A stretch of 64,000 nt of DNA, taken from Microthyrium microscopicum. Lineage: Eukaryota. The stretch lies in NCBI GenBank assembly GCA_010405405.1, contig MU004235.1, positions 2,162,506 through 2,226,505 on the forward strand, in the 5' to 3' direction. This document shows, one piece after another, positions 28,458 to 62,344 of this stretch. The first letter of the stretch is position 1. Each line of letters opens with the position of its first letter. The position numbers and the translations under genes were made by a program. The notes under the pieces were generated by a model. That model was not told where the DNA came from. It did not search any database and saw only the letters and a program-made list of their open reading frames with translations.

Positions 28458-28607
28458 TACCGAAAACTTCCATTCAGTCGTGACAAGCTAGCGCGCTTTT
28501 CCAGCGAGGTTTTGTGCCTAAGCAATAGTGAGGGTCCCCTAAATCCGAAGTGCCCCCTGCAAAACAAACCGCGCTAGCTTGTCACGACTGAATGGAAGTT
28601 TTCGGTA
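28458..28607. mobile_element. MITE-like element A: 36-bp perfect TIRs flanked by TA (38-bp perfect inverted arms including TA), 74-bp core
   Basis: 28458-28495 TACCGAAAACTTCCATTCAGTCGTGACAAGCTAGCGCG is the exact reverse complement of 28570-28607. TA ends fit Tc1/mariner-type target duplication. Confidence 0.8.
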
Positions 28608-29159
28608 ATAGTCCTGAAGAAGTCACTACTTTGGTCTGTCGTCAAACTTAGAGGTAAAGTCTCTGATATTGTTTACCTGAATCATGACTTGGACAACTGT
28701 GTCCAGAAAAATATGATCAAATTGAGATTTGGAAAGGCCGAGTGAGGTAAAGATCGTGAAAAGTAGGAGGATGAGGCTCAAAAAACGTCAAACAGCCACA
28801 CCAAAGCTGGAAAGGGCAGAAAGGCGAAACTCTATCTGAAGATCCCTGCAAGTCAATACGCTAAAAGCGGCCGCAAAAGAGGCCAATGATTTTAAGCATC
28901 AAAAGCAAAGCTTAATTATCGTGGTGTGTCGCCCTGGCGCCCAACCTTTTTTGGAAGTGGCATTTTTATGGTCCTATTGCAAGTCGTTCAGCAAGCCCAG
29001 CGCGTATTTCACCAAATGCCAAAGATGGCTATGAAAAGGGTCCCCCAGCTGAACAGATCTGGATGCAACAGATTCATGGAGTCAAGTCCGTCCATTTTAC
29101 AAACTACCAACTTGATCTTTCCACGACCGAAATCTTCAATTTACAGCCTTTAAGCTACC

Positions 29160-30175
29160 ATGCAGATCTCCCGAGTAGCGGCGGTAGCCTGGCTCATCAT
29201 CAGCACTCGAGCGCAAACTCCCAGCACTGCCAATTTACCTTCTTGTGGCGTTCGTGATGCCCTTAACCCCTTTTTGCTGGATATTGTAGAGAAGCTGACT
29301 TGCGACCAGAGAACCTGTATAGTGAATAGTATAAATCAACAAACAGTGTGCTCAAGTACAGATACGTCATGTCTTTGTGGCAATTCTGCTCTCGGGTATA
29401 GCATTGGCTACTGTTTGGGGTCGACGTGCGATTCTGCCGATATAAGCACGTCGGAAGCCTGGGTGGAACAGCTGTGTAGTGGTAAGATCCCAAACCTCGC
29501 CGCTTGAGAACGATCTAACATATTCCAGGCAGCTCTACAACCCAGACAACAGCGGTCATATACACGGCGGCCACAGCGCATGCCGCTACGGCATCCGCAA
29601 GCTCAAAGTCAGGAGGTACCACCTATAATGACCAAGGATACGCAGATGGAACCTCCGGAGGAGGACTATCTACAGGGGCCAAAATCGGTATTGGGATTGG
29701 CGTGCCGCTTGCTGTCTTCCTTATAGGAGGCATCTTTGCAGCCTTTCTGCTGGGCAGACGAAGAAAAATCGCAGCTGTAGGCCAAGCACCACCAGCATAC
29801 TCTTACGCTGAGCAACAAGCGCCTGTTCAGGGTCCTAACGGTTTCGCGTCCATGTCAATGGACCCGAAGATGGCTCCTCAGGCGTCCGTTGTGGATATGT
29901 ACCCTCTACAATCCCAAGATATGCAGATGTCCCAACAAATGCACCAGCAAGTTCCACAGCAGCCTATCCCGCACCCAAACGCATTCGAGATGCAAGGCTC
30001 TATGGCACAATCCCAATTCAATCACGGATACGCGAATTCTGGAGTTTCGCCGCAACAATTACATGCAACGCCTTTACCAACTCATGCATCGCCTGTATCA
30101 GCTCATCAGCAAGTTTATGAAGCACCTACGAATGCTCCCATGGTGACGAGTGCAAGTGAACTGCCGGCAGCGTAA
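29160..30175 (+). CDS. CFEM-domain single-pass membrane protein (signal peptide, CFEM, S/T linker, TM, Q/P-rich cytoplasmic tail)
   Basis: Removing introns 29250-29309 and 29482-29528 gives LPSCGRTC..CSSTDTSCLC..YC..TC..LC (8-Cys CFEM), then GLSTGAKIGIGIGVPLAV..RRRK and a PPAY motif. Confidence 0.88.
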
Positions 30176-30323
30176 GATTGCTTGGACGAAACGTTGATGA
30201 CTGAATATGGGGTAGCGCTGTTGATCAATTATCCACCCCTTAGGTACTAAGCCACTCAAACAAAAATCCGAATGATTGTCAGAAAAGTTATTACTTTGCA
30301 AGCTGCACTTCATTACAGCGTAA

Positions 30324-31168
30324 TCACAGCATTGCTCGCCAGCCGTCTTGCAATGGTCTTTCTAATCCAAGATGATCGGCTACCTGCCCAAGATGATCAA
30401 AGCCCCAAAAAGCCTCAGTCTCGCCTTTCTTATTCGTAGCTATCGATGATCAGACATGTTCGCTTCGTGGGTAGTATTGAATGTGCAAACTTACCAACAA
30501 ACCACGGCATTCCAAAGGCTCCAGTATCAAAAGCTTCTTGAGTTTTCTCCGATAAGCCATCTTTGACATCCTTTGTGCTTGTCGCTTGCATGACTTTATC
30601 AAGCTGATCATTTGCTAGCACACTACCAAGAACGCTTCCAAGCGCAGCAGGTTCATTGATTCGAGTGTGCTCTACCCAGAATGCAGTGTATACAGCTGAG
30701 GTACATTGAACTAGTAGCTCCGGATACAGAATGCTCACTGCGGTGAGAGCGCGTTGCGGTGTTAGTGTAAGAACAGGAAACCCCTCAGGCGTTTCCGGCT
30801 TAAGAGGGATGTTGAATTGCTTCGCCCACCGAAGACGTTCAACATAAATCCATTTATTCTTGTCTGCCAAGATGGTTAGCTACCGTACTCGACACTTGGA
30901 CGTTGATCAAACTTGCTTGTGATTTCAATCGGTGGACGATTGTCGCAAGCTTTCATCAAGCCTCCCAGAAATATTGGGACATAGGTTTTCTCTACGTTCT
31001 TGAAGGCAGGAAGGTTCTGATAGTCAGTCAGTACCTTGTTATTGCGCGATAATCAACACCAACGGCAGCTGTTCATTGCACCACTCTACTAACCTCCAAA
31101 GCCCAAAAGGCAAAATAAGCAAAGGGGCTGACAGTATCAAAGTACAACTTGAGTTTAGGGCTAGGCAT
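30324..31168 (-). CDS. Kappa-class glutathione S-transferase / DsbA-like HCCA isomerase family
   Basis: MPSPKLKLYFDTVSPFAY, PIFLGGLMKACDNRPP, GAFGMPWF and FWGFDHL, ending DGWRAML*. Several short introns. Confidence 0.88.
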
Positions 31169-31573
31169 TTTCCTTTCGATAAAGCTTTGAGCGTTAGAGT
31201 ATGGTAGAAGAATTCAAGTTATTGACGTTGAATTAAAGTTGTGGTTCTGTTGATCGTGACCTCAGAGGCTCAGAAGAGAAGTTGCCCCTCGTGTCGATTG
31301 ATTTGCCTCGGTTTCAAAAGTTGTCCTACTACTACTAGTACTTTCAAACTTCTACCTTTTGTTAGTGTTTCACGTTGTTCAGTTTACAATGTTCGCCAAT
31401 GGCATAATAGACAAAACGGTGTTCATAAGTTTTGCATTTGGTGCATTCAGCACTGTGTCATTAATCTGTCATTAGATGGGCCTCCCTTGTCCAAAGCACC
31501 CACTGATTCCCAATGCCGGACGATGACCGAATCTAAGGCAATACATCCAATCCGATCCACCATCATTCGAGCC

Positions 31574-32026
31574 TCAAGCCGAGCAGATTGACAAGGTAGC
31601 GCCAGAGGCAGCTGGAAGAGATGTGGCGATGCGACAGGTGTTTGGGTCGGCACCCGCTGGGCAGCTGAAAGCAGCGGCACCAGTAAGTTTGTCGTAGATC
31701 TCCTTGAGCGACATGCACTGGCCACTGGCACCGGAAAGAGTGATGTGAGATGGATCGTTGAAGCCTCCAGCGTTGGGACGAATGGCCTGGTTGGTCACGT
31801 CGTAGTTGCCGCATGGAAGGACAGCATCGCCAACAGCACCAGAGATGCGACCGATGACAGCAGCGACATCGCGAGCCTGGGCTTGGGTGAGAGCACCACA
31901 GTCGTTGGTGGAGCTTGCGCCTGGGAGAGCTGCAACGAGGAATGCTGAGAGCGTGATAATCTAGCCGGGTTAGAAACTACAAAGCTTGAAGCTATGGAGA
32001 GAACTTACCAGTCCGAAGAACATCAT
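31574..32026 (-). CDS. Small secreted cysteine-containing protein, 134 aa, 6 Cys
   Basis: Exon 32026-32009 (MMFFGL), intron 31961-32008 (GTAAGT..CTAAC..TAG), exon 31960-31574 (IITLSAFLVAALPGASSTNDC...TLSICSA*). Confidence 0.85.
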
Positions 32027-32826
32027 CTTGAAAGCTTAGAAGTTTAGGAGCTTTGTAAGATTGTGGTCAAGTGTGTGAGAGCAGCTTTCGAAGGTTGTGA
32101 GATATGATGTTGTGGTTGTGGAGGTTGAGGGCAGAAAGCTGTGAAACCAAGGGATGTCAAGGCGGAAGATTAAATAGTGCGACAACCTACAAAAGCAAAC
32201 TGAGAGAGTGAAGTTTACGAAAGCTCAAGTGAAAATGGCCAGTTACTGAGCATTCCAACTGCCTAAGTGACGGCACAGCAATCTGCACAATGATCCGGAT
32301 TGAGTAACCTCAACTAACAGGCTACCTGAAATTCCCATCTTCACCTCGATAGACTGAACATAGTAATCGTATTGCTGGATGAAGATGCCTAGATAGTCCA
32401 AAGTTGAGCAAACGTGTACCGAATCATCAAGGGCTTAACTGTGAAATCAAGGGTTTGAAGGTAGAAGAACCTCATGCGGGTTGACACAAATTCAATTTTG
32501 CAGACGCTATGGTACGACTTGATGGTTGTATCTAATGTTCAGTCAGCCCAAATATTCAAGTTATGTCTAATCGCTAGATATGCGATTGAAATCCAATCAT
32601 CTTGCGCGTTTATGCTAGGCGAGAGCTGATTTACCCTCGCGATCAATGATATGTATAAACCGGCATTCTGATTGGAGCACGTAGCTTCTCAAAAGAGATC
32701 TTTGTTTTGTGCAATTATCCCCCCCCTGAAAATACATTAGACGTACGTCTAGTCATGAATGCAAATTTATTGCAGTTGAACACGCGTGAACACAGTGTTC
32801 GAGCGATTTCTTCCGATTTATTGAAA

Positions 32827-34669
32827 CTAAAGTTTAACCTGGAATCTTGGGTTCTTCCTAAGCCACGAGCCATATATAGCAAAAAGCAATGGAATCGGTA
32901 CCAAAGCCAACGCAAGAAATCCAAGCAAAGAGTTCCCCCAGCCCAGACCCAGCTTGTTGTACATCTTCAAACCGCACAGGGGTAGAAGGCTTCCAAGAAG
33001 CGATCGTAGTACCGTGTTCGCTGCGATTGCGCTGGCTGCATAACGTGTAAAAGCATCCACGATATAAGTTTGCATTGACATCTGTTCTCTTATAAATAGG
33101 GTAACCTGAGTAAACAAGAACATAACTCACAAAGATGACCAGAAGTGCGAAACCGGTACAGGCGGTTCCGATTAGCGGTGCTATCCAATGTACTTTATAC
33201 TGTGTCGTCCACCCTGCAAATCGTTAGTATGTCAAGTGGCAAGTGTATTACAGCGAGCATACCATATATGAATAGCCCAACGGGTAGTAGACAAGCTGCT
33301 GGGGTGATGACCCATATAGGGATTCGGTCTTCCGGTACGACCTCCTCCCCTCTTGCTTGTTTTCCCTTGATTATTTTGTCTGTCACCGTTCCCATGATGC
33401 CAAGCGATAGCATCATACCTATACCCAGGGGAATGAATACAAGTCCCACTGCTCCAGTGCTGAATCCATAGTTCTCCTGGAATACAAAAGTGAATGTCGT
33501 GAACAATAGATATAGTATCCCGTAAGCCACAGCCACGTACATACAAGTCAAGGTAACAATCGGCGATAGGAACAGCATTTTTGTCGGACGAACGATGGCT
33601 CGTAAGAACACTTGTTTCATGGGGACATCCGAAGCCAATCGTGACCGTAGATCAGGATTTGCGGTCTCCTTTCGAAGTCGAGCTGCTTTGTGCTCAAGTA
33701 TTACTGGAGCATAGGTTTCTCTGCTAAAGAAGAAGCCGGCTACTGTTCCAACACCAGAGAGGATTGCCAGTAACCAGAAGCTCCAGCGCCAACCCTTTGC
33801 TTCGACAAGGTAGCCCCCTGCCACAGGTCCTGAACCAGTCAGTAAGCATCAATGTAATGCATATTAACAGGAGAGGGCTAACACAATTAATGGGTCATTT
33901 GCACGACTGTTGAAGAAAAAGACATTCTTACCAAAAACAGGTCCAAGAAGAGGACCAATAGCCCATATAGCCATGGCTCCACCTCTTTTCTCTACTGGCA
34001 TCATATCGGCGATAGTGCCTCCACCAATGGTCAGAGGACATACCCCAAAGATGCCATGAATAAAACGGAAGGCTACCAGCTGTCCCATATTTTTGGCGAG
34101 ACCGCAAGCTACCGCAAAAACAACAAACAAGACGTTGCAGACATTATAAAGCCAATATCTTCCGTATATCTCCGAGAGAGGAGCGATAACGAGTGGGCCA
34201 AAGGCGAAACCTAGTAGATAGATAGAGACCACAAAGGTTGCGAGTAGCTCATTAGTGATTCCAAAGTCTTTGATCACATCCGGAACACCTGGTGCAAACA
34301 TGGAGGATGCTAGCGGACTATATCTGTGTCAGCTTGTGTCTTTGGAAGCGGAGAGATAATTCGACCATACGTGATGAGTGTTACATAGCTCAAGACAGCT
34401 ATTTGTCCCCATTTCTTTTGCGAAGACCAATTCATAGGATTGTGTGGGTCCATATTTTCCGGCTCATCCCACCAAACTTCATTGGGATCTGTCCCTACCG
34501 AGATATTAGGGGTTATGGATCCCTTTTCTTCGTCGGAGTGTCGAGTTCCGGCGCGAATATTGGTTGAAATATCAGCATCATGACCCTCCTCGTATGCAAG
34601 CTTCTCGTTCTGATCTTTGAGATCCATGCCGTCGAGGGTCGGATTGTGGTAGTTGCCTGGTGTGGTCAT
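32827..34669 (-). CDS. MFS multidrug transporter, DHA1 family
   Basis: [62 protein letters not shown]. Multi-exon. Confidence 0.93.
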
Positions 34670-36371
34670 CGTACACGAGGTAGCTATCGTTTTGTTAGCT
34701 GCTCTGTAGCATCTCTTTCAAAAAGGCAGTAAGAACTATCTCGTGCTAGGCTTCTGAAGTATCAACACACCACCTTCACATCTCAGTCATTAAAAGCCAA
34801 AGTTACATGTGTCGCGGGTTATGAAAGATCTGAAGTTTCCCCTGATCTCATGGTAGCATAATAACAAACGCGAATTGTCTCTTGTACAAGAATAACACTT
34901 ACGTTGTCTATAACCAGTGAAAATGAGTGATGATATCGTATAGAAGGGACCTTAATTATGAGGCTCAGTTCTGCTAGTGAACCGAAAACGCCCTTGGAGC
35001 ATCCGTGAACAAGTACGGCAGAGATCCGCAGGAGACGAAAAGAGCGATCCTCCAGAAAGCGCGACTTCTTAGTCTCGAAAAAAATTGCTCCACAGCCTTT
35101 TATACCTTAAAGCTGCAAACCATGTCCACGATGGTGATAACCCATTGCCATTGCTTGCCATTGGCCAATCCAAAGAGAGGCTTCGGAAAAGAAGGTTTGC
35201 CGAATCCGCGCCCATGGCAAGGCGGCGACATGGCACCAGGGCCGCCCCCTTTTGACTTGGATTCAATGGCGAGTTCGCCAGCCACAGGGATTAAGTTGTT
35301 TCGCTGCCTTACTGAAGCGCAGATGGACAAAGATCTGAGCAGGTGAGCGAATCAGATGTTTTGAAAACGACGCGATACTCGAGGTCTCAACCCTGGCTCG
35401 TGTAATTCAGTGACCGACTTTGGATATCTAAGAATGATCTCTGGAGTCAGGAATGAAGATAGCGCTGCCTTGACGTTGAAAGAAAGTTGGGCCTAGACCT
35501 CGGTTTCGGTTTCCCCCGCAATATATTCATGAAGACATTGAAGAGACGAATTTTTCACGTCCATCCTGGCATCCTCTAGGACTATCAACAACATCGGGAG
35601 CAGCCGTGACCCTTGTGGAACTGATGATGCTTGCATTTTTTGGCCTGTCAAGAAGCGACCAAGCTGGGCACCTACATTAGCTTGTGTCGCACCACACTAC
35701 GACAAAAGAGACATGCTGAAGATCGGGTAAATCGGCAGCTTGAGTCTGGGTATATTCTTCATCTTTCTGATCTTTTACCACTTCGTTCGTTCTCTGTTAC
35801 CTACCTAGTGTCTTGGAAGCAGCATCGTGGCGGAAATCGAGGGGGATCTGATCCGAGTCTTCATTCCTCCTAATCTTATCAAAGTCTTCGAAGAGAAGAA
35901 GAGGACGAAGCCGCCCGCTATAGGGATCGCATTCCAATGTCCATACTTCTCGTTCAAAAGCTGGCGTAAAGAGGTGTCTCCAGCCCAACATAAACATGTT
36001 AGTACTACTTGATATAGCATTGATCTGATTGTCCAAACAAGCAATACTCGTGCAACTCAAACGGGAGCCAATGTAGTATAACCCGACACTTGGGTATTAT
36101 AGTTTTTGTAATCCACAAGTTACCACAAGTTTGGATATGATGTCCAGACTACTGGATATTCCAGCGATTTGTCTGTTAGTAGTGCCCATGATATTCGGGA
36201 CGTAACATCTAACGCCCTTAACTTCAAACATCCCAACTCCCAGAGATACGCTCACTTTTCCCATTTCAGTTCACTATGATGTCTTAGGTATCTTGTGAGG
36301 CCTAGTGTTTACAACATGGGACTGATGTATATATTATGTTTTATCCAAGACTCATCCATGTACTTAGTCTA

Positions 36372-37320
36372 CTACAAAGGATCGTTAGGAGTCTTCATGA
36401 TTTTTCTCCCCAATGCTTTTCCATGGAGCTGTTGTACAATATACTGAGATGAGCGGTCATGCCAAATGGTGCCTCGCTCGTTGTAGGAAGTATGACCAGG
36501 GCCTTGCTGGAGATCACCACAAGCCTGTTGAGTCGTGTTAGCATTTCAGTTCTACCGCCTGAGTTAGCCACTTACAAAGTCTCCGACAGCGCAATTTGCA
36601 ATTGTCCTGTCTTTCAAAGGATCAAGGATAGTGGTTCCATCTCCAGAACCATAAAGCACCACCGCAATAATCTTCTCCTTCTGCTCGGCAGATAGCATGA
36701 GCTGTGCCGTACTCATCACTGAGCCACCTTGCGAGTATCCAACGAGCGCGAACTTTATGTCGGGACAAGCTTGAATTTGCGCAGTTATCCGCTTGGAAAC
36801 ATCGGTCACGCCAGTGATGAAGTTGAGCATGTCTGCTGGATACTACAAGACTATACGTTAGAAAGTGCGATACTTGCTTGCTGGGGTCAACATGACTTGC
36901 CTGGACGGGATAACCTTGCGCAGTCTCATTCAGCTTCTTCATATCTCTGATAACTCTTGCCACCAACGGATCTCCCACAATCTGACCTATTGGGCCGGAT
37001 TCACTGGTACCTCGCGCTGTTGTCATAATCAGTCTGAACGTCTTCTAAAAGATTATGGCGTAGATATATAGAGCGATATCCGCAGTAATTGTCTGATATG
37101 ACTTACCAACCAAAACTTCCAGCTTCGCGCATCCAGGCGGGACTGGACCAAATGGAACAGCCCAGCCAGCTCCACAATCTGCTTTACCAGGCTCAAACAT
37201 ATAAAATGGACCTGGATTCGGAACGAGCTTCTCTACAACAGTGCAATTTGGATTTGGAGCCCCTAATTGGGCATTGACAGCTGCGAGCAACGTCGCGAGA
37301 ACAGGAGCGTAGCCCAGCAT
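36372..37320 (-). CDS. Secreted cutinase-family (CE5) esterase
   Basis: Signal peptide MLGYAPVLATLLAAVNA; ARGTSE, nucleophile motif GYSQG, C..GDF-AC and GHTSY. Four short introns. Confidence 0.9.
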
Positions 37321-37915
37321 GACTGCTGTTTTATTATGCGATTGATGGACTGTGTTGCTAGAGATCTGGAGTGAAGCAGGAAAGTCCACTTACCTTATAT
37401 TTAACAAGCTTGATGTGAGTTATTGACCATTAATGAATGAACGACCAATAAATGTATAGCGTCGGACAAAGTAGTTGAAAATTATGAACATCTCCGTGTT
37501 TGTGTACAAACTTTCAGCACTCTTTTATCAATTCTAAACATGGTAATACCTATTCTCTCTTAGTGTGTGGCTCTACCATGTCGGATCATCCGAGCAATTA
37601 AAACCTTCAGAATATATTAACGGCCCTCAATTGATCGCATCAAGTAATAGGGTATGAGAGGCCGCACACCTGGCCCATTCGTTGTTTGCAACCCGATAAA
37701 TAATGGCCAACTATTCTCCACTACGCAGTTCCATTATGAACGGCATGATGAACACGCAGCTTGATGACATTGGATCTGCATCTCCTATTCACTGATCAAG
37801 TATAACACTCTCAATCCATCAATCCAAAAATTGATGACTGCCACTATGACTTATAAGAGCTACGCATAAGAGAAGCTTCTTTGTACTAACCCTTAATTCC
37901 ACTGTCTTTTTCCCT

Positions 37916-39454
37916 CTAGAACCATCGAGTTACAGGGCGAGTTATGGGTGACCAAACAGGCGGTTTCTCTCCATCCTTAATTTTGCCCTTCGTCGTAATT
38001 CTGGTTCCTTTTGGAATATTCGCCTCGTTTGGATCAACAAAGTCCCATTCTTCGTGGTCTGCAATATCATCGTCGAAGGCTGGTTGTACAGTTCGGGCTG
38101 TAACAGGTGGAGCTGGAGCCATAGGAGCTGAGGAAACAGGAGCTGTATCAGTCGGAGCTCGATGGGTTGCGACAGATGCCTTTGATATTGAAGGTAGGCT
38201 GGCTTTCCCTAAAGTTGTAGTGTTCGAAAGAGATTCAGCACTTGCAGCTCGTTTAATCTCTCCTTGGCTCGTGGACTCATTGCGTAAGGGATTTTGTGAA
38301 GGCCGCTGGGAGATTGGCCGAATGATCGCTTTTGGAGCTGCAGTTCTTAGAGCACCTGTAGCAGTTGTGCGTTCTCCTTGCTTCGCAACTTCACTGTACA
38401 AGGGCCGTTGTGGAATATTTGCATCTTTGCGAATAGCTTTGGGCTTCGGGATCAATGGCTCATTAGCAGCTTCCGCGAGCAACCCATCCAATCCACTAGG
38501 CGCTAAATGAGAAGTCGTAGAGTCGCCCCGTGGCTTATGCGTCTTATCGGTAGGAAAAGCTGGTCTCACTATGGGCCTGTTCCCGCTTTCAGGAGCCTCT
38601 TCTGAAAATGCCATTCGTCGATGGCTGTGGGAGGCTTGTAAATGGGAGCTCAGGCTTATCTTTTCGAGTTGTTTCTGGAGATCCATTAGGGCCTGATCGG
38701 ACTCAGATATCTCTGGCCTGTCAGAATACGGTTCCTTTGATTGAGTGGAAGATAATTGCGTCGGCTTGTCAGAAGACGATGGCTCTGACTTAGTAAGAGA
38801 TGGTTGCTTTAGCCTAGTAAGAGATGGTTGCTTTAGCCTAGTAGGAGATGGTTGCTTTAGCTTAGCAGGAGAGATTTGCTTGGGCGCAGGAGGAGGCAAC
38901 CACTTTTGCTTGGCAGCTGCCGGTTGTACTGGCCTAGTAGGAGATGAAGGCTTCGCTCTCGGTCTCGAGATCAACGATTGCAGAGGGAGCAGGTCAGGCA
39001 TTTGTTCGTCCAGGGCGGAACTTGTCGTTGCAGACTTTGGACGAGCAGTTCTGTCCTCTGCTCGTGGCTTAGAGGAAGCGTGCTTAGCTCTATCTTTCGG
39101 ACGTGTAGCCTGAGACGACTTTGTGCTTGTATGGCCAGTACGAGCGCTACGCTCGCGGTGTGTAGTGCCGACTTCTGGCTTAGAATGTTCATTTGGTGCG
39201 CCTCTCGATGGCTGATTCGATGTGTTCTGCAGCGAAGGACTTTCAGGGTGATGTGCCGTACGATTCTGTTGCTGGGCCATAAACCTATCCCACGGCGAGC
39301 TTGGAAAACGAGCTCTGGGGATATCGATATTGTCTGGCAGGGCTAGTGCCATCATACGCTCTGCAAAGGTTGCCCAAAGACTTGGATCCGTAATTCGGCT
39401 GTTCTCCTGAGGCCCGGGCCTAGAGTTTTTGTTGTTTCTGTCGTTGTTGGCCAT
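37916..39454 (-). CDS. Hypothetical intrinsically disordered P/S/T/K-rich protein
   Basis: 512-aa uninterrupted ORF of low complexity with an internal 8-aa repeat; acidic EEWDFV motif near the C-terminus. Confidence 0.7.
   Translation of the reverse strand: MANNDRNNKNSRPGPQENSRITDPSLWATFAERMMALALPDNIDIPRARFPSSPWDRFMAQQQNRTAHHPESPSLQNTSNQPSRGAPNEHSKPEVGTTHRERSARTGHTSTKSSQATRPKDRAKHASSKPRAEDRTARPKSATTSSALDEQMPDLLPLQSLISRPRAKPSSPTRPVQPAAAKQKWLPPPAPKQISPAKLKQPSPTRLKQPSLTRLKQPSLTKSEPSSSDKPTQLSSTQSKEPYSDRPEISESDQALMDLQKQLEKISLSSHLQASHSHRRMAFSEEAPESGNRPIVRPAFPTDKTHKPRGDSTTSHLAPSGLDGLLAEAANEPLIPKPKAIRKDANIPQRPLYSEVAKQGERTTATGALRTAAPKAIIRPISQRPSQNPLRNESTSQGEIKRAASAESLSNTTTLGKASLPSISKASVATHRAPTDTAPVSSAPMAPAPPVTARTVQPAFDDDIADHEEWDFVDPNEANIPKGTRITTKGKIKDGEKPPVWSPITRPVTRWF
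38790..38875 (-). repeat. 24-bp coding tandem repeat (about 3.5 copies; LKQPS[PL]TR)
   Basis: TAGTA(A/G)GAGATGGTTGCTTTAGCC repeated on the + strand. Confidence 0.85.
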
Positions 39455-40087
39455 ACAGAAGGTACGATCTCCGTTGATATGTGATGAGAATGGATCGATA
39501 TTTCGGATTGCAATAGGCAGCAGTGTGCGCGAGTGGTGAGAGTTAGACCAAAAAGCAAGGAATCCGGGAGTTTATATACAGTACTGATGAACAAGCTGAA
39601 GGTGGCCCATAGTGTTAGATTTCACAAACATGAAGTATCTTGAAGGATCTGTATGAGTGAGGAGATAGTTATAGGATGTCATGGGAAAAGTCGTTTGCGC
39701 CGGCTTTCACAAATCCTCAATGAAAGTGATATGGTCATGGGGTCCTCCTGAAGTACTCAAGAGCTATTGTGTAATGTAGAGATTGCCAAATGAGAGGGAG
39801 ATTCTGGGATTCTCTTTCGTTAGGTATCTGATAGTTGACCAAAGATTTCATGACTAACGCCACTTATGACTTGCCTAGCAAGCATGCATTAGTTCTAGTC
39901 AATAGTGAGAAAGGTAACTTCGAAAGGGGCACATACACTAAGGTATTCAAGGAATCTGTTTGTATGAATACCATATTTGCCTGACTGTTATAATACGTGG
40001 TGGAGATAGTACTATGGTAGTTTTGCATTGTGACTCAATCAGCTCAACCTCTATGTTTAGAAGCAAGGGAATGAAATCAGTTGGAAG

Positions 40088-52600: not shown

Positions 52601-54355
52601 CTTGGCCACCCATTGTGTGATCATCTCAGATCTGGACAGTGGGCAATGGATTATATCATCGGCCGGCTGGAGAATGCGTCAAAGCAGAATCAGTGGAAGC
52701 GTCTTTCTGCACCAGCTACGTGGCTTCGGGAACGATTCGATGCTTGTCGTAAACTCCCGAGCTTCTTGCTTCCACGATACTTTGCCATGGTAGTAAACAC
52801 CATGTACTCCGCCGCCACCGACAGAGCTATTGAGCAGATGGATCCAAATATTCGCAAAGGCAATGACTTCCTCAAAGGACTTTCTTTAGTCAGTCTTCAA
52901 GTCACTGGATACATGAACAGCACATCGCTCTATCCTAATAAGCAAGTTCCTTCTCTGGCTGCGGGTCTGCCTCATTTTGCCAATGATTGGGCAAGATGTT
53001 GGGGCCGAGATATCATGATTGCAATGCGAGGTTTACTCATTGCCCCTGGACGTCGAGCTGAGGCCATAGACCATATCTGCGCTTTTGCATCTGTTGTCAA
53101 GCATGGTCTGGTTCCCAATCTCTTGTCAAAGGGAGAGCTTCCACGCTACAATTCTCGCGACTCACCTTGGTTCTTCTTGCAAAGCGTGCAAGATTACTGC
53201 AAGATTGTACCGGATGGAATATCACTTCTGTCGGTCGATGTTCCACGACGTTTTCTGCCAAATGATGATACTTGGTTTCCTTGGGATGATCCTCGCGCTT
53301 ATTCCAAATCTTCAACGATTGCAGAAGTCTGTCATGAAATCATGCAGCGACATGCGTCTGGTCTAGACTTCCGCGAGTATAATGCTGGTCCCAACCTCGA
53401 TTCCCAGATGAAGGACGAGGGTTTCAACATCAAAGTATTTGTAGACCCCGAGACGGGCTTCGTTCACGGTGGTAATCAACACAACTGTGGTACCTGGATG
53501 GACAAGATGGGAGAGAGCGTCAAAGCTGGCAGTAAAGGAGTTCCCGGCACTCCTCGCGATGGCGCAGCAGTGGAAATCACAGGCATGCTCTTCAGCGCCG
53601 CCAACTGGCTCGACTCGTTATACCAAGCAGGACAATTTGCCTACTCTGGCGTAACCTGGGCCGACGGATCCAAGAAATCCTACTCTGACTGGGCCGCCCT
53701 CATCAAAGCCAACTTTGAACGTTGTTTCTGGGTCCCACGCGACCGCGCAGACGACGCAGCCTACGATATTGACGCTACCATTATCAATCGCCGCGGCATT
53801 TACAAGGATCTCTACAAATCCGGTAAACCGTACGAAGATTACCAGCTCCGTCCCAACTTCCCCATCGCCATGTGCGTTGCCCCTGAACTTTTTGACCCAT
53901 CTCACGCCCTTCACGCTCTGTGGGTCGCCGACAAAAACCTCCGCGGGCCCATTGGTATGCGCACACTCGATCCCAGCGATCTCAATTACCGGCCCAACTA
54001 CATCAACTCTGACGATTCTGACGACTTTGCTACCGCCAAGGGACGCAACTACCACCAAGGACCAGAATGGTGTTGGCCGCTGGGTTTCTTCCTACGCGCG
54101 TTCCTCCGCTTTGGACTACAGCGGGCCACTACGGAACATGAGCGGACGGAAGTCTATCAACAGGTTACAAGACGGCTCGAGGGGTGTATGAAGCAGTTGA
54201 AGGAGAGTCCTTGGGCGGGACTGACAGAGTTGACGAATAAGGATGGGGCGTTTTGTGGGGATTCTTGTCCGACGCAGGCTTGGAGCGCGGGTTGTTTGAT
54301 TGATTTGTATGAGGAGGCTATGAGATTGGAGGGGGAGAGTACACAGAGTGCTTGA
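49629..54355 (+). CDS. GDB1: Glycogen debranching enzyme (4-alpha-glucanotransferase/amylo-1,6-glucosidase)
   Basis: Intron 49862-49908; SNSPYSIYDQ, WGDCVKLRYG, GFRIDNCHST, DCTHDN, WARCWGRD, GTWMDKMG, YHQGPEW, QAWS. Confidence 0.97.
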
Positions 54356-55169
54356 GAGCGTAGGGAGGGGAGATTGAATAAGTGGTGATGGTGGTGGTGA
54401 AGTGAGGTGGCGGAAAAGGGGTAATGAGAGCCAGCGTAAATATACCTTACCTAGATCCTACGATAACAACTGTCAATGATACACGCATTTCCTATGTTTG
54501 ATGGGTTTTGAGGGGTTGATGTGTATGTCCACTTGCATAAAGGCTTGAACTATAAGGCTGTGAGGTTAATATATCTCAAACAAAAGAGCCTCAGGCCATT
54601 GATCGATCCAAATCCCCATCGGCTTTCTAAATGAGCAACATATTTCGCAGTCATTCTCTCCTAGCATTCGCTTCCTTCAACTTCCGATCTGATCATCTGA
54701 TCGTCTTCATGATCTCTAATGGCCCGTGACGAGCACACGTTCAATAGATATCGTATCTTATAGCAATTCTTACCTTATCAGAGAGCAAGATACCTTCAAG
54801 CTGTCTACCCTGGTCATCTCTGCTTGGTCCATCTTCCGCACTTTGCTCATCGCCGCTATTATTACTCGAGTGGGAGATGGACTTATTGGCTCTCCACGGG
54901 CACTAAATACACAGGAAAATCGCTCCGAACGACGCTATGCCCTTTCCAATCTTTGATATTGCTTTGATTCAATTGGAAGCTGATCTTGCTATGCTACATG
55001 GACCGTATTTGGCCTCTAACTACCACCCATCTCGTGGGTAGTCCTGCTTTGTTATATCACCACAGTTATATCCCATCGTGACGTTTCCCAACATACCTAC
55101 CATTTCGAACTCATTGCTTTTGATCTTATCTATGCCATTGTAGCATTTCTTCACTCGCTAATTCCCATC

Positions 55170-55950
55170 ATGCATTCTGTTGTTCTCCTCGGCGCGCTCG
55201 CCGCCCTTGCGTCTGCCGCGAATATCAATCGTATGTATCCACCACCAGCAAATCGACCTTCTGACACTGTCCAGGCCGTCAAACACCCGCTGCTACGAGC
55301 TGTCCTGCGATTGCCCCAGATTTCCTACCCGGTACCGATCCATGCTGTCAGGTCGCCGACACAATCTCCACCAGCAGTCCGTCTAACCTCCTATAACAAG
55401 GACAACAATCACTGACAGATATAGTAATGTCCTGCGACAGCGTAGCCGAGTCCTGGGGTATCAAAGTCAGCGACTTTATCACACTCGTTTGTCACCCCTC
55501 CCGTTCCTTCACCTTTCTCTTTACTTCGCTGACTTGTCCAGAATCCCTCGGTAAAAGCCGACTGCTCCAATCTCAAAGACGACCAACGCTACTGCGTCTA
55601 CTCCACCAAACCAACCAACGCCCCCATCAAAGCACTTCCCGCAGCAGGTAAACCAGCGCCTGGCCCAACTATGGGAACGAAGGGCAAGTGTGATCATTGG
55701 CAGAAGGTGTTTCCGGATGATACTTGTGCTGGGATTGTGGAGTTCTTTGGGAAGTTGAATCAGTTTCATGGGAAGAAGATGACGAGGGAACTTTTGGTTA
55801 AGTTGAATCCGTAAGTACACCCCTATGTTTTGGAGGGAAGAAGGAGAGAGATGGCAACGATATAGGCTAATGGTTTATAGGGATTTGGGTCCGGATTGTA
55901 AGGTTAAGGTGGGGAGTTATTTGTGTTTGAGGGAACCGACGACTGTTTAG
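55170..55950 (+). CDS. Secreted LysM-domain protein (two LysM modules, five exons)
   Basis: Signal peptide MHSVVLLGALAALASA. Spliced product contains SCDSVAESWGIKVSDFITLNPSVKADCSNL..YCV and DDTCAGIV..LVKLNPDLGPDC..YLCL. Confidence 0.85.
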
Positions 55951-56659
55951 GGAGGATGATGGCTTCATGCTTTGCTGTTTTGGTGAAGGAGGGTCAATCT
56001 TGCTCTGATATCAGAGTTGTACCGATATTGAACTAGTTGTAATCAGCAGAAACACTTCTTCCACCCACGGCTGCTCTAGTGTATTATCCTCAAAAATAGT
56101 CTCCAGGCTACGGGACGGCAAAATGGACGGGCTACGGCCAACATGTCGACAAAATAAATGGCGCGCTCCCATCAACTACGGTGTATCCCATCGCATCTTA
56201 TGTCAAAGAATGCTTCAATTCCCATCGCACTTGATGATATGATCATTGTTCAACCTATTCGATAGGCATTAATGCAATCGATCATATAACGTAGCTTTTG
56301 AGAGCCATCGAAGCCGGTGGAGCCACGCCAGTTATTGTGTCCGCCGGTTGACATCCTACTCCAGAGAACTACGGTGTCCCTTATCGGCTGCGAGCTCCAA
56401 CCGAGTGTTTTGCTTGCCATGGAGGATGTTCAATTCTTAATAGCTCATTGAATACGATGGGAAGTATCGCACCATCTGTTAGGAGAGGTGGTGGGAAAAT
56501 ATCACATTATCTGTTTAAGACGGGAGAGGTGGTGGCAGCCATGACCATTTTTGGGGATATGCCGTTCTTCTGGCCATTGGGTTGTCAGCCTGTGAGCCGG
56601 TTGTAGACTAAATCACACATGGCAATATCGTTGCCTAAGGGGGAGTATCATCTCCCGCG

Positions 56660-56821
56660 GCAAGATGGACGTCCCCTACAGTGACATATATATCCATAAT
56701 AGCGAGATACATGTCCTCTATCGCGAGATGAACGTCCCCTAGTGCGAGATAGAAATCCCCCATAATGAGATGGAAATCCCCTACAACGAGATACATGTCT
56801 CCTATAGCGAGATGGATGTGG
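56660..56821. repeat. Degenerate 21-bp tandem repeat, about 8 copies, consensus GCGAGATRxAxRTCCCCTAYA
   Basis: Units start at 56660, 56681, 56702, 56723, 56744, 56765, 56786 and 56807 (partial). Confidence 0.85.
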
Positions 56822-57316
56822 AGTATCTTACAAGACAAGAGTACACAGCTTGCTTAAGCATACAATCTATCAGTTAGTGCTGTTTAACGACTTATCGTCA
56901 TACACTATCTTTTTTACTCTCTATACATTCGAGAAACGCGCTTCAGACTCAAATTCAGGCCATTGTTGCCGCATGTGGGATTTCAATCTCAATCTCCTGC
57001 TACTTCGCTCTTGCCGATTCGCTTTATACAATACAGGGTGCCTCCCTTCCTCAACAGGAAGGCTCTCCTCTCAGTGAGGATTGGCCCCAGCCAGCTTTCC
57101 ACGAAGGGAAGCGACGATGAACTTGACTGAGCTTTGAGACCTTGCTGTTGCCTAGAGCCAGGCACTGTTGTGGACGCACAATGCCCATAAATACTCTCCA
57201 TTCCCTCTCGTCTTCCACTCTTCCTCCACTCTTCACCACACTCTCTTCAGACCATAGCAGCGGTCACTTCATTCACAGTCTCTCTTTAAATCACTACAAG
57301 CACTACTCACTCATTC

Positions 57317-58223
57317 ATGATGTGAGTACTAAAGACTTAGTTTCTGACGCGCTCCTAAATACTAGGAAGAATCATTTGCTGACTGCGGGCACAGGTACTT
57401 GAACAAAACTGCTGTCGATTTCGTCACTCTGGAGTGCCTAGAGTGCGACCTGCCATTTAAAAGCAGGGCTTCACTGGAGGACCACCTCCAAACTTCACCA
57501 GCTCACTTATCCTTTGATTGCGAGGAATGCAACCTCCTTTTCAGCAATGAGGATGAGCTCCATGAGCACTATCGTTGCTCCGTTGCCCATTTGTCGGATT
57601 CTGACGACTCTGACAACACCAACGTGACTGGAAGTACCGACCTTGCCGAGGATACCGATGCCACCGGTGAATCCAATATCACTGAGGAACCCGATGCCCC
57701 AGAGCAGAACAGCCTTCCCCAAGATGCCATCCGCAAAGAAAACAAGCTTACCAAGGGCGGCTGGACCATGTTTCCATCTCATCACGAGCAGATCACCAGC
57801 GAACTTCAAGGAACCAACCTAGTCTTGCACTTCAATGACAACGATGATGATGACTTCATCCTAAAGGTCGACCGGGACATACATGGCCGCTTCACCTGCG
57901 AAAACCCAGCCTGCAAATACAAACATCGACGTACATGGGTGCGCGCAGGATGGGAAAGCATGACTGTCGAAATGACCATCCGACTCTATTCCGGAAATCG
58001 ATACAATGCTGGAGTGTATCTACAGCGCTGTCACGGCTGCCACAAGCTCGGCAAAATGAACTTGGATGATTCATTTGCTGAGCATGTTGCTTATCGTCTC
58101 AAGCAGTGGCATGGAATCAAGGCGTCATCACCAACATTCTCCGTTACCACCACCGGTCCCCACATGAGAAGTAAATGCCAAGCATGCCTGATGGGTCGCC
58201 CTCATGGCCATTCGCGACGATAG
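57317..58223 (+). CDS. Zinc-binding protein: two C2H2 fingers, acidic linker and C-terminal 3CxxC-type domain
   Basis: 5-nt first exon (57317-57321), intron 57322-57394. CLEC..H..H, CEEC..H..H, then GRFTC..C..W, YNAGVYLQRCHGC and GPHMRSKCQAC. Confidence 0.8.
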
Positions 58224-58666
58224 ACTTACGAGGACTAGCATTGGGCCTGGAAATGACCTGGAATTTTGTGGTGCGAGGGCAGACTTGAGCTGCCGGGCAG
58301 ATGAACGCCACTGAACAACAAACAATGTGTATGGTATTGGTGTCAATGAATTGTACAACAACAAGGAAACTCAACTCAGGATCGAGTTCAGACTACTTTC
58401 ATCATTGCTCAAATGGAAAGGACTGGCATGAAGTGATGTAATGGGAGAGAGCGACGGCGAATTTTCATGTATGAGTAGCATTCCCCATGAGGCCTTTTAG
58501 TATTTTACCTGTCAACAGCAATGTAGACTCTGCCTCCCTCATCATTATGCTCATCGAGAGATATGTGCCCAATTTTCCAAACCTCCTGTTCGTCTATGCA
58601 TTCCAATCGCTAGCAGCACAAGATGAATGTACGATAGGATATATTGATACAAAGCTAACCGCTCCT

Positions 58667-60019
58667 TTACGAGCCAATGCCATTATAAGCAATCAAATTC
58701 GGCGCTCCCTGCAAATTCCCTTCAATCTGGTCTTTCGTCGCCGTCTCTTGCAACCAGCTCCTGATTTGCGCTGGCTTCTGAGTCCCCACTGCACTCAGCC
58801 GATTCGCAATCAATGCCGCGACCTGCGGCGCCGCCACACTAGTTCCCCACGAGAAGTATTTATAGTTCGGATCAATGTTCTTCGCCGATAAAGTTGGCAC
58901 ACGTGTGCCTGGTGCAAACACTGTGATACACTTTCCAATATTCGTGCTCTCCATTTCGCGTCCACCAGCATCCTGCGTCCCTTTGACGGGTAATTTGTTG
59001 AAACCATTCACACTGCCCACGCTAATCACGCCGCGCGCGTTAGATGGTTGCACGCGGCAGGAATCGCGACCATCGTTACCAGCGCAGACGACGAAATGGA
59101 GGCCGCGGTCAACTGCTTTGCCGACGGCAGTAGAAACGTCCGGTAGGCCAGTGAAGCCATAATGGCTCATGGATATAACTTTCATGCCATTGTCACCAGG
59201 TTGTTGCAGCACCCATTCGATACCCGCGACCACATCATCGCATGCGCTGCGATTCAGATCGTTTGCGATTTTTACGGCGACCATGGCTGCTTCGGGAGAG
59301 AGACCGTGGCGGTCGCCGGCAATGACGCCGGCGCACATGGTTCCGTGGCCGTGGTTGTCGTTGTCGTTTGTCTTGCCTGCGCCTCTTGAGCCTACGAAAT
59401 TGTGTCCGAAGGAGATGGGGGAGCCTTTAAAGCCTGGGTTTTTGAGGTTCACGCCTGTGTCGAGGACGTACACGGTCGCGCCTTTGCCGAGATGGCGATC
59501 GCGAACCCAGGGACCGGCATTGTAGCCCCGTGTAAAGTTTCGGTGGGATATACGATTTGCGTTCCAGCCGCGGTCTGGCATGGTCATTATGCCTTGGGGA
59601 AGGACAGGGTCGGCAGGCGTGTCGGCGTCGCGGATTATGGTAGTGGCGAACTTTTTGGCGGCGGAGACGGTGGTGAGAGATGGAATTTCATCGTCGCGAA
59701 GGGCGGAGAGACCGACGTGGTCGATTCGTAGGACTTCTTCTTGGCTGCGGATCCAGTCGAGTGCTTCCATGTTAAGGACGGCAGAGTAGCCTTCAAAGGC
59801 GAGGGAGAAGACATGGCGGACAGAGACATCCGGGTATTGTGATTCAAAGCTTTTGATTTGTTCGATGTGCTGGGTTTGTGTTTCGGGAGATACGCTCTCT
59901 TCGAAGCTTATGATGTAGGTGTGAGGTAGTTGATTCGAAGACGGTGGAGGAGGGAGAGCCGTCGCGGCTTCGACCGCCGAAGTGGTAAGCAGGAACAAAA
60001 GAGTGACTGGCCAAATCAT
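58667..60019 (-). CDS. Secreted subtilisin-like serine protease (S8, proteinase K type) with I9 propeptide
   Basis: Signal peptide from MIWPVTLL; I9 (YIISF..FEGYSA); catalytic VLDTG, HGHGT, GTS; oxyanion AGND. Intronless. Confidence 0.93.
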   Translation of the reverse strand: MIWPVTLLFLLTTSAVEAATALPPPPSSNQLPHTYIISFEESVSPETQTQHIEQIKSFESQYPDVSVRHVFSLAFEGYSAVLNMEALDWIRSQEEVLRIDHVGLSALRDDEIPSLTTVSAAKKFATTIIRDADTPADPVLPQGIMTMPDRGWNANRISHRNFTRGYNAGPWVRDRHLGKGATVYVLDTGVNLKNPGFKGSPISFGHNFVGSRGAGKTNDNDNHGHGTMCAGVIAGDRHGLSPEAAMVAVKIANDLNRSACDDVVAGIEWVLQQPGDNGMKVISMSHYGFTGLPDVSTAVGKAVDRGLHFVVCAGNDGRDSCRVQPSNARGVISVGSVNGFNKLPVKGTQDAGGREMESTNIGKCITVFAPGTRVPTLSAKNIDPNYKYFSWGTSVAAPQVAALIANRLSAVGTQKPAQIRSWLQETATKDQIEGNLQGAPNLIAYNGIGS

Positions 60020-60818
60020 TTTCGGCAGGAGGTTCAACACCGGATCGTGCAGGAAGAGAACGACATGTAAGTACCTGTTTTCAAGGCACAAGATAATAGG
60101 TTCCGAATGGTCCTCGGGTCCCAATAGCGTTATAATCGGCGCCGGAGATCACCTTACTTGGCTGTGGACATAGATGCTATCAGTCCAAATCACAAGTCCC
60201 ACCAGCTTCTAGAAAGCGCTACTTGAGATTGAAAGTTGAAGAGCCTGACCTTGTATAGATCAGAAGGTGTTATGGTAGTGATAACCGACCAGGATGCAGG
60301 AACAGTTCTCGAACAGCAGTGGCCAAGCTTAGATTAAATCCATGCGAACATCAGCTTCTCCACAGGAAATAATCGATATATTTGACGTTCAGGGCAGGGC
60401 TCTGCAAGGCTCGAATGGAATCGTCAAATCTTTATGATATGGTTGGTACTTGGTAAGACTCAGACAAACGAGCCCTAGTGGGTTGCGTGTTGTGGCAGGG
60501 TGGCTTTCAAATATCAGGACTGATAATGTTCGTCCTGAAAAATGGGAAATGAAGGTTGCAGATTTTCCCTGGTTGGACTGGTTTGTCGGGTGGCTCGACC
60601 TGGTCTTATCAAAATAAGCGTATTTTCCATGCCTGGGAGAGGTCGATTCCATGGAACCCAGAGATTCTGGACGCGATACGACCCATTCTAGGCATATTGT
60701 ACTATAAGTGGCAATATTTCCCGAGATCTCATTGGAAATCTTTCAAAGTATATTGGATATTCGATACGGAACCTCCCGTTACGATGTATATTGTTGAGGC
60801 TCAATCTCCATCGTGGGT

Positions 60819-61880
60819 TTAGTCGACTTTCTTGTTGTCAAACCACAGCCAGTATTCAGGTACACAAAGACCTAATCGCCAAAAATAATCTCGATGAGCA
60901 AAGAAAAGTTGCCAGATCTTGAATCGAGTTGGAATGCCCCATCGGTGAGACGCAGAACTCGCTGTGCCTGCACTGCATGATGGGTCGTGGGATCCTGCGC
61001 AATGATATGCGTCCTCCAGCTCCGGGGGAAGTTCAGAATTGTTCAAGAAGATCTCACCACCATGTGGCATATAGCCCCACTCCTCCAAAGGAAGCAGTGG
61101 TATAGGGTCATTGACATGGGTGACGCGGCGAAAATTTGAAGGTTCATAGTCCGCAGCATTCGTGCCGTTCCGAGAGAGGTTGAAGCGTGCATCGACATAG
61201 TCGGCGAATGCTTGATTTCCTAATCTTGGTTCGCCAAATGTCGTTACGGTTGGATTATATCCACGTCCTACGAGATCAAGACCAGCCAATGCAGCAATTG
61301 CGCCCCCCAGTGAATGGCCTACAAGCACTAGCTCGTATCCTGGATTCTCCTCCATACTGATCTGGACATCAGGCAAAATGACATCCTTTGTATTTTTCCA
61401 AGAAGAATGAAATCCCATATGAACAAGGCAGTCCTCACACTTTGGCACCGTTGGTCCAGATTTGTTGCCCTCAGCGCCTGGATATGGTACATATTCTTGT
61501 GGAATGGTTGCTAGATCTGCAATAGTATTGGTGATGGAGTAAGTTCCCCTGAATGCGACAATGACCCGCTTAGCAGCTGGAGCATGAGACAAGGCAATAT
61601 ATCCACACGATTCTGAGAGCAGAATTCCAGTATTCCAGGTGGTGACCAGCTCAAAGCTATCAAAGTCTCCGCACCGGCTTGGACATTCGAACGGTTTTGA
61701 GATTCCTGGAGCAGGTGTACCAACACAGTATGCAATGTCGACGATGCGAGCCAGCTCTTCAAGCTCGGTGAAGAGCGATTTTGATACGGTCAATTTGGGA
61801 TTATCATTATGATTATGGATCTGAAGCGGCGCTTGGAGGGCGGCAGCAAGGGTTGCGCAAAGGGCGATTGCGAGTTTCAT
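60819..61880 (-). CDS. Secreted triacylglycerol lipase (class 3)
   Basis: Signal peptide; VAFRGT, VHMGF, GHSLGG, TFGEPR, RVTHVNDPIP, AHRDYF. Confidence 0.93.
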   Translation of the reverse strand: MKLAIALCATLAAALQAPLQIHNHNDNPKLTVSKSLFTELEELARIVDIAYCVGTPAPGISKPFECPSRCGDFDSFELVTTWNTGILLSESCGYIALSHAPAAKRVIVAFRGTYSITNTIADLATIPQEYVPYPGAEGNKSGPTVPKCEDCLVHMGFHSSWKNTKDVILPDVQISMEENPGYELVLVGHSLGGAIAALAGLDLVGRGYNPTVTTFGEPRLGNQAFADYVDARFNLSRNGTNAADYEPSNFRRVTHVNDPIPLLPLEEWGYMPHGGEIFLNNSELPPELEDAYHCAGSHDPSCSAGTASSASHRWGIPTRFKIWQLFFAHRDYFWRLGLCVPEYWLWFDNKKVD

Positions 61881-62193
61881 TGTAGGAAGATGGTCATGTT
61901 AGCATGACAAAGTTGCGGATAGAAACATGAAGTATTATTTATTGGTACAATGGAGTAACAAGGAGTATGATAGTAGAAGAGAGGAAAGGAGAAAGGTTGG
62001 CAGCGGTAAGGTAAGTATCATGACCAGATGTGTGACGGTCACGCGCCAAACAGCGGCATCACCATCTCCAGCTGCATCGTGAGTCTGTGGCTAGGCTGTG
62101 GCTCACGAGTGGCTAGTGAGCCGCGTGGCCAAAGCGTGTTGTTGGCTCCTGCCAAAACACGAAAACAAAGGAAAGAGTGCCCGGCAGTGGTTC

Positions 62194-62344
62194 TACCGTT
62201 TTTACCCTTTCAGTTGGGCCACGGTAGCGCGCTTTTTCTTGCTGGTGGCGCTCTGAACTTAGGCAGTGACTCGCTATCGCTCACGGGCAAACCTCGCCTA
62301 AAAAACCGCGCTACCGTGGCCCAACTGAAAGGGTAAAAACGGTA
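62194..62344. mobile_element. MITE-like element B: 36-bp perfect TIRs flanked by TA (38-bp perfect inverted arms including TA), 75-bp core
   Basis: 62194-62231 TACCGTTTTTACCCTTTCAGTTGGGCCACGGTAGCGCG is the exact reverse complement of 62307-62344. Confidence 0.8.

Follow-up and report, generated by a model that had tools for sequence, protein, structure and literature searches.

Two hairpin elements, A and B, in the genome of Microthyrium microscopicum are very probably non-autonomous miniatures of a fungal pogo-type clade of cut-and-paste elements, whose transposases, now ruined by RIP, acted in trans; this identification is largely shown. We further consider it rather probable that the explanation as a whole holds, namely that such pogo MITEs acquired matched pairs of ends by template switching.

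Elements A and B

The analysed window comprises 64,000 nt of contig MU004235.1 (assembly GCA_010405405.1, positions 2,162,506-2,226,505, forward strand). Element A (28458..28607, plus strand) is a MITE with a length of 150 bp; it belongs to the AAAAC-arm clade and is located in an intergenic region between divergent genes. Its left TA (28458..28459) is probably a target-site duplication, as judged from the TA duplication at a 3.26-kb clade member. The left arm (28460..28493, plus strand) consists of CCG, 26 variable bases and TAGCG (28489-28493), with pairing continuing to 28495. The core (28494..28571, plus strand) is non-coding and has no conserved fold. The right arm with the right TA (28572..28607, minus strand; TA at 28606-28607) is the exact inverse of the left. 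Element B (62194..62344, minus strand) is a 151-bp MITE of the TTTTT-arm clade. Its left TA and arm (62194..62229, plus strand; TAGCG at 62225-62229) are followed by a non-coding core (62230..62308, minus strand), which is homologous to that of A, and by the right arm with the right TA (62309..62344, minus strand), again an exact inverse. Two ORFs flank B, which is upstream of both: a lipase ORF on the minus strand, its first Met (61880) at a distance of 314 bp, and a plus-strand ORF (62748) at about 400 bp. A and B are the window's two longest inverted repeats, and neither has a long or Pfam-bearing ORF. The arm of A starts with CCGA and that of B with CCGT, neither being CCGTA.

The sequence-only reading had assigned perfect 38-bp inverted arms to both elements, and re-measurement gave the same arms and lengths. 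The 38 bp are a local extension in A and B, the family-wide arm being 36 bp including the TA. The arms of A and B agree at 25/38 positions and, since they are perfect within each element, all 13 differences are mirrored on the partner arm. The cores had been described as homologous in opposite orientation. Homology is confirmed: core A and the reverse-complemented core B reach a global alignment score of 65, a value attained by none of 2000 dinucleotide shuffles (mean 10.4, maximum 40), compared to 33 on the same strand. The orientation merely reflects the direction of insertion, as the ends are symmetric. The window is also devoid of a transposase of this family, in line with the earlier statement (best family match E 2.8 or worse; 0/22 ORFs scanned).

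Dispersed copies and target sites

This 37-Mb ascomycete genome contains at least 54 TA-flanked miniatures of 150-356 bp, A and B among them. The count covers complete small elements with an arm identity of at least 28/36; five damaged copies (L010, L011, L041, L051, L074) are excluded. At least 35 copies are 150-151 bp long, a modest number for a MITE. Relatives of A occur at 11 other places (71-86% identity) and those of B at 27 or more (77-99%), three copies differing from B by only 1-3 bases each. The dozens of copies are dispersed in unrelated flanks and some are identical (L006, L007 and L008; L039 and L040). The proposal of recently active TA-flanked MITEs thus stands as regards MITEs, here of the Tc1/mariner-pogo group, and recent amplification, but there are about 20 arm types rather than two subfamilies.

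Empty sites with a single TA were found for the 3.26-kb clade member, which resides in a repeat: 13 repeat copies are empty (3 read directly), so that TA target-site duplication is demonstrated for an element of the same transposase clade rather than at A or B. No paralogous empty site was found among the collected loci for the 71 elements checked, which include A and B, and no empty joint was found at the B site in the four of six sequencing runs that were analysed (X1 and X4 are probably from the source sample; X5 and X6 yield scattered low-depth pieces). A pattern scan of metagenomes gave two matches, one in a bacterial gene and the other in a tandem repeat, both of them coincidental, and none of 138 pattern matches in viral contigs is a relative.

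Large elements and their transposase

Elements with CCG-starting ends and a DDE transposase, a candidate source of the miniatures, do exist in this genome. We delimited 19 large clade elements, every one of which has TA-CCG ends or RIP-worn forms thereof; the arms are 33-36 bp long and the target is TA. Element C9 (G000:C9:1883099-1891572), RIP-ruined and 8474 bp long, is bounded by the arm type of B and carries the remnant of a pogo-type transposase (HTH_Tc5 + DDE_1) with the D-35-D motif retained. The dispersed copies, this transposase-bearing element with B's arm and the empty single-TA copies together identify the small elements as MITEs and not as conserved RNA. Elements of families I and II measure 6.9-8.5 kb and have the remnant of a second ORF; there are also 3.2-kb families, most of their members starting with CCGTA and some having fixed asymmetries between left and right arm.

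The pogo domain assignment was made via 87 homologs and profile alignment of the remnants; a direct Pfam scan of two RIP-ruined remnants gave no match. All six large elements searched with a profile of 48 intact homologs were matched (E 1e-14 to 1e-41), although the profile was built from L136 matches and is thus circular for L136. Among 27 homologs scanned, DDE_1 was found in 24, HTH_Tnp_Tc5 in 21 and a terminal SAP domain in 13. A PDB search with an intact homolog returned SAP-like and chance matches only. A search for an intact transposase of the clade found none. The second ORF of families I and II has no match in Pfam or among longer proteins, the latter being weak evidence, and a scan for other ORFs by shared stops was uninformative due to RIP saturation. 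That small size let miniatures escape RIP is a speculative idea.

Arm types and element bodies

The arm is built from TA, CCG, 26 middle bases and TAGCG. We found 18 arm types as perfect pairs, in which only TACCG, A19 and TAGCG are fixed; 25/26 middle positions are variable, yet matched between the arms. That arms stay perfect while diverging between copies therefore holds for these 18 types but not for all copies, as 12/54 have unrepaired mismatches. A G/A mismatch at arm position 15 occurs in 5/5 copies of one subfamily. The arms are also block-mosaic, with 134/325 site pairs failing the four-gamete test.

Arms and bodies do not change together. The 169-bp copies L109 and L142 differ at 16/36 arm positions while their cores differ by 4.1%, with no transversion. 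C9 and C2 differ at 19/36 arm positions, with 0.6% transversions in the adjoining 520 bp, and L145 and L088 share their interior while the right end and both arms have changed. The arm type of A also bounds the 169-bp element L012; its exact arm is found on this 169-bp derivative only, without a large parent, and related arms are present on C2 and C17. Both ends of the 310-356-bp copies match family I, as opposed to one end in the 169-bp copies. No large parent was found for the 150-bp core; the one match observed, to family II, is 13 bp long (p ~0.03, uncorrected). We also considered that the core had inserted into an arm-TA-arm palindrome of 64 bp, at its TA, but no palindrome of this kind carrying the fixed arm positions was found.

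In sister 3.2-kb elements, transversions are more frequent in the DNA-binding N-terminus than in the catalytic part (e.g. 73/750 vs. 5/450), a comparison for which the windows were picked after the data had been seen and which concerns a region that is normally variable in transposases. The contrast is weaker for C2/C9 and L215/L220.

Origin of the mirrored arms

For the mirrored arms themselves, we see an about even chance that matched ends were acquired from another element by template switching. The clade would have radiated into variants differing in the 26 middle arm bases. During repair synthesis, which probably takes place at an excision gap, both ends of one element would be copied, with a template switch at the common TAGCG or at subterminal homology to the body of another, resulting in a small element with a new matched arm pair; for the 150-bp core, just ~5-7 bp of homology are available for such a double switch. 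Short conversions between arms may generate new arm types, and matched pairs that suit an active transposase would be retained by selection. A dedicated step, swapping the outer 31 bases on either side as a cassette at TAGCG, perhaps assisted by the second ORF of the 7-8.5-kb elements, seems improbable. If true, transposase and arm would exist in lock-and-key variants, and miniatures would follow these by re-capping their bodies.

It is possible, though we doubt it, that the mirroring mainly arises because one arm is copied to its partner within each MITE, without transposition, either by fold-back template switching at replication or by crossover or conversion between the inverted arms. Such a mechanism is published for the stems of RNA genes (PMC8794818, accessible part), and the block-mosaic structure fits it. 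In L054, the G/A mismatch of its subfamily is on opposite arms, as if the core had been inverted; L212 and L213 mirror three inner transversions while keeping their outer left/right asymmetry; in family II, a change of 6 bases is present in mirrored form at both ends, 7.3 kb from each other, with 0.28% transversions in the bodies. Short-range switching, however, spans 3-8 kb only with difficulty, and both the mismatch retained throughout one subfamily and the other mismatched copies argue against this reading. Exact arm types shared by unrelated bodies require transfer between elements. Arm-to-arm repair, suggested by the sequence-only reading, thus probably contributes but is insufficient.

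Independent change of each position on both arms, selected for binding to a slowly changing transposase, would explain why the DNA-binding region diverges in step with the arms and why some 3.2-kb elements have fixed asymmetries. We consider it very improbable: the 18 perfect types require no fewer than 39 mirrored changes, compared to one shared unmirrored mismatch, nearly all middle positions vary yet remain matched, and L109 and L142 accumulated their arm differences on cores without a transversion. The other earlier suggestion, a conserved structured element, is not supported; we give almost no credence to a hairpin RNA or other structure conserved by the host and kept paired by structural selection. 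The predicted hairpins are strong (-82.5 and -93.3 kcal/mol for A and B) and both elements lie upstream of genes, but there are dozens of copies in unrelated flanks, an Rfam search of the window gave no match, no consensus fold is obtained for the core (-0.75 kcal/mol), and transposase-bearing elements end in these arms. The 504 arm cells hold 106 two-sided changes with just 2 G-U, which is unlike an RNA stem.

Template switching, the explanation we favor, bears on a simultaneous change of both transposon ends, an event usually assumed and seldom observed. As a single genome combines some 20 matched arm types with several bodies and with DNA-binding domains that co-diverge, end replacement and arm-to-arm repair can be tested against each other.

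Relation to known transposon systems

As MITEs, A and B are an ordinary kind of element. In the largely open-access literature covered, neither the family nor matched arm replacement in short-arm elements is described.

According to the accessible parts of a pogo survey (Gao et al., 2020; PMC7386202), the Passer family has a TA target, D35D, HTH_Tnp_Tc5 + DDE_1 and arms of up to 40 bp, all of which also apply to the M. microscopicum clade. The single Passer row examined in supplementary file 3 starts with CCGTA, like most 3.2-kb elements here. These shared features, together with database names (several homologs are called 'pogo transposable element with KRAB domain-like'), suggest a Passer-like lineage. 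In the same parts, Passer is reported from animals and stramenopiles only, the fungal pogo families being Fot and Lemi. Our elements would represent a lineage of Passer-like pogo transposases that is widespread in Pezizomycotina, frequently has SAP and is sometimes found in 7-8.5-kb elements. This lineage is not described in the accessible parts of two pogo surveys; the term SAP is absent from the main text of PMC7386202 as far as available. The pogo length range given there (1.2-5.2 kb) includes the 3.2-kb families and is exceeded by families I and II. Fot has mostly TAA targets and arms of 40-60 bp, and the rows examined start with CGT, GTC or TGT (PMC7386202). Fot1-type pogo elements resemble our clade in being fungal and in having DDE_1 and D35D, but differ from its TA target and CCG arms. 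TAACGT-ended elements of the same genome (L155, L158) gave no tblastn match to the transposase remnant.

A precedent for chimeras with the same ends and another interior is Galileo of Drosophila mojavensis, where both arms of one subfamily enclose the interior of another, attributed to ectopic recombination or conversion (PMC3573991, accessible part). Galileo arms are, however, hundreds of bases long and its chimeras are a minority of copies. Twelve Galileo copies have two unlike arms, compared to 0/54 complete small copies here, where the required arm identity means that copies with unlike arms would be missed.

In the systems mimp/impala and Stowaway/Osmar, MITEs share the ends but not the interior of their autonomous partner. 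Our miniatures are likewise short, non-coding, TA-flanked and moved in trans, and their core may equally lack a match in a parent. In contrast to those systems, one genome here has several bodies that carry about 20 arm types in shuffled combinations; the arms are always matched and the boundary is at the fixed TAGCG.

Elements A and B belong to a dispersed and mobile family

Elements A (28458–28607) and B (62194–62344) each carry perfect 38-bp arms, with 25 of 38 arm positions common to both. Their cores are homologous: with one reverse-complemented they score 65, against a maximum of 40 among shuffles (0 of 2000 reach 65). Both are intergenic, each between divergent genes. In the genome (37.1 Mb, 58 contigs), A as query matches at least 11 other places and B at least 27 (77–99% identity). 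The pattern TACCG-N26-TAGCGY yields 123 matches versus 41 for a control, and the TTTT-clade arm pattern 68 versus 0. With five damaged copies excluded, 54 complete small elements were extracted (35 of 150–151 bp, 6 of 169 bp, 2 of 231 bp, 11 of 310–356 bp), copy counts being lower bounds. Outside the TA, their flanks are not related to one another and have an even base composition. A and B are thus dispersed, multi-copy MITEs, as in the first of the two alternatives of the sequence-only reading. One triplet (L006, L007, L008) and one pair (L039, L040) consist of identical copies, and B differs from three other copies by 1–3 bases, so we consider the spread of this family recent.

An empty site with a single TA was found for a 3.26-kb member of the clade, L219, which lies in a different repeat. 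Thirteen further copies of that repeat (3 of them read directly) lack the element: their flanks meet and both TAs are reduced to one. Duplication of the TA is thereby established for the clade and presumably applies to A and B. Among the sequencing runs compared at the B site, coverage comes only from the probable source sample, and no empty allele was seen.

Two copies of one subfamily lie 909 bp apart (L056:1501–1650 and 2410–2559) and show several C-to-T/G-to-A changes, perhaps because RIP acted on the linked short repeats; some such changes are also found in an unlinked copy. One 150-bp-type copy (L011:1501–1787) has grown to 287 bp via an internal insertion and has a shortened right arm.

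Large elements carry remnants of a pogo-type transposase

On contig C9, two lone B-type arms face each other 8474 bp apart. This element is homologous to elements of 7664 and 8025 bp with A-clade arms (together, family I). Family II (6.9–7.3 kb; five copies, two of them enlarged through insertions) has different TACCG arms and its own miniatures of 233–235 bp. Eleven elements of 3.18–3.26 kb also have TA-CCG ends, some of them RIP-worn, and large elements of all these families are RIP-damaged. Family I is matched at both ends by the 310–356-bp miniatures and at one end by the 169-bp miniatures; no parent of the 150-bp core was found among the large elements compared.

A direct Pfam scan of the transposase remnants gave no match. 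Translation of the large element L136 with X at stops retrieved 87 matching proteins, and among 27 homologs scanned, DDE_1 was detected in 24, HTH_Tnp_Tc5 in 21, and SAP in 13. A profile from 48 homologs matches all six large elements tested (E 1e-14 to 1e-41), and D-35-D is kept in the C9 remnant. DDE transposases of elements with CCG ends exist in this genome as pogo-type remnants inside large TA-CCG elements, and an ORF scan and profile search agree that the window holds none of this family. Relatives occur across Pezizomycotina, mostly unnamed, some titled "pogo transposable element with KRAB domain-like". In an intact, intron-bearing relative (L161:311–3382), TACCGTA precedes the start by about 680 bp; this relative lies on a short unannotated contig that is binned with a bacterial genome and is probably fungal DNA.

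Families I and II have in common the remnant of a second ORF that runs convergently to the transposase (L136:5023–5682, plus strand; L107:3577–4236, minus strand; L073:5683–6342, plus strand). Its identity between the two families is about 30%, and it has no database match (Pfam; longer proteins, the latter being weak evidence). A 1.5-kb block containing internal repeats likewise occurs in both families (L107 ~6100–7830, L136 ~1380–3230). Since it is 87% identical and the transposases only about 33%, this block has moved between them. Two stop-free transposase-like genes with no detected arms are candidate domesticated genes: L154 (G000:C5:2320233–2320742; 430-aa DDE_1 protein) and L225 (G000:C17:221016–221420; HTH-only ORF).

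Family II copies L137/L138 (C19) and L222:6030–8982 (C6) contain nested insertions, one resembling an LTR retrotransposon (TG...CA ends, 5-bp duplication), the other of 2.95 kb with short TCCCTT-type inverted ends. L155 and L158, each about 1.8 kb long, are Fot1-like, with arms of 46 bp that begin TAACGT; the DDE_1 match of L155 has two stops.

Arm types occur as matched pairs and are uncoupled from bodies

The 36-bp arms are perfect in 42 of 54 copies; the other 12 have 15 mismatches, five of which are one G/A common to a subfamily. Arms stay perfect while diverging in most copies, but not in these 12. The two diverged subfamilies proposed are indeed part of a mobile family, but their number was too low: 18 arm types occur as perfect pairs, requiring at least 39 mirrored changes, and only TACCG, A19, and TAGCG are fixed. 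In the 150-bp set, divergence is larger in arms (0.19–0.20) than in cores (0.13). The alternative of a conserved structured element would also account for matched arms. Among 504 arm cells (14 aligned copies), 106 two-sided changes stand against 2 G-U and 2 unpaired cells, the core has no consensus fold, and an Rfam scan of the window gave no match. The scarcity of G-U cells and the foldless core argue for matching at the DNA level rather than in an RNA stem, and we reject this alternative in favor of a MITE family.

Matched pairs occur on unlike bodies, A's arm on 150-bp and 169-bp bodies and B's on 151-bp and 8.5-kb bodies. Between L109 and L142, 16 of 36 arm positions are different, and the cores are 4.1% diverged with 0 transversions. 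Between the C9 element and a related large element on C2, 19 of 36 arm positions are different; divergence is 0.6% transversions over the next 520 bp and about 10% over the transposase half. The C9 left arm matches its own right arm, not the lineage of its left neighbour. In these cases (A, B, L109/L142, C9/C2) the boundary falls at TAGCG. In family II, a 6-base change is mirrored at ends 7.3 kb apart. In the 3.2-kb families, an arm variant is in most cases private to one copy. When close copies are compared, the majority of arm transversions are mirrored, and outer differences without mirroring are also present (L210–L213).

Block mosaicism of the arms (134 of 325 site pairs incompatible, with a contribution from recurrent mutation), a swapped mismatch in L054, and inner-only mirroring in L212/L213 are signs of arm-to-arm exchange. 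Miniatures of the A and B types would be mobilised in trans. Both ends may be taken from one element via template switching while a gap is repaired, a scheme modelled on P-element replacement and the abortive gap repair of Ac/Ds. Short arm-to-arm conversion could generate new arm types, and selection would retain pairs fitting an active transposase. Copying is not needed at each jump, since one mismatch persists in five copies.

Between sister 3.2-kb elements, the DNA-binding region shows 66, 73, 35, and 64 transversions per 750 and the catalytic core, in the same order, 10, 5, 4, and 22 per 450. This suggests, rather than proves, co-evolution of arms and DNA-binding region, because the windows were picked post hoc and such a contrast is common in transposases. 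L216 and L217 differ by 1/450 transversions at element positions 2551–3000 versus 73/750 in the DNA-binding region, a hint that the elements are mosaics.

Comparison with known systems

We regard A and B as real and mostly ordinary MITEs from a fungal pogo lineage that has been little described; no description of the family was found in the papers searched (publications, not Repbase or Dfam consensuses). What stands out is how many arm types there are and that they are swapped as matched pairs at one constant junction. The exchange has a partial precedent; its mechanism is unproven. Galileo chimeras are reported to combine the same ends with another interior (PMC3573991), and template switching to keep stems matched (PMC8794818). 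In its workings the clade resembles Passer, of which it may be a member; Gao et al. (2020, PMC7386202) describe Passer as D35D, TA-targeting, and present in animals and stramenopiles. Families I and II exceed the pogo size range of 1.2–5.2 kb stated there. Dupeyron et al. (2020, PMC7325037) report D35D groups including fungi, and their supplements may contain clade sequences; passages of Muszewska et al. (2017, PMC5751038) yield nothing specific.

Other features of the window

The window contains velvet and Zn2Cys6 genes, and repeats carry RIP-type damage; together these features indicate a filamentous ascomycete. At 3877–4038, two 32-bp arms with 84% complementarity, separated by 98 bp, form an imperfect inverted repeat, possibly an older miniature that belongs to a different family. 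Tandem arrays with periods of 19 and 21 bp occupy 2531–2776 and 56660–56840, respectively.
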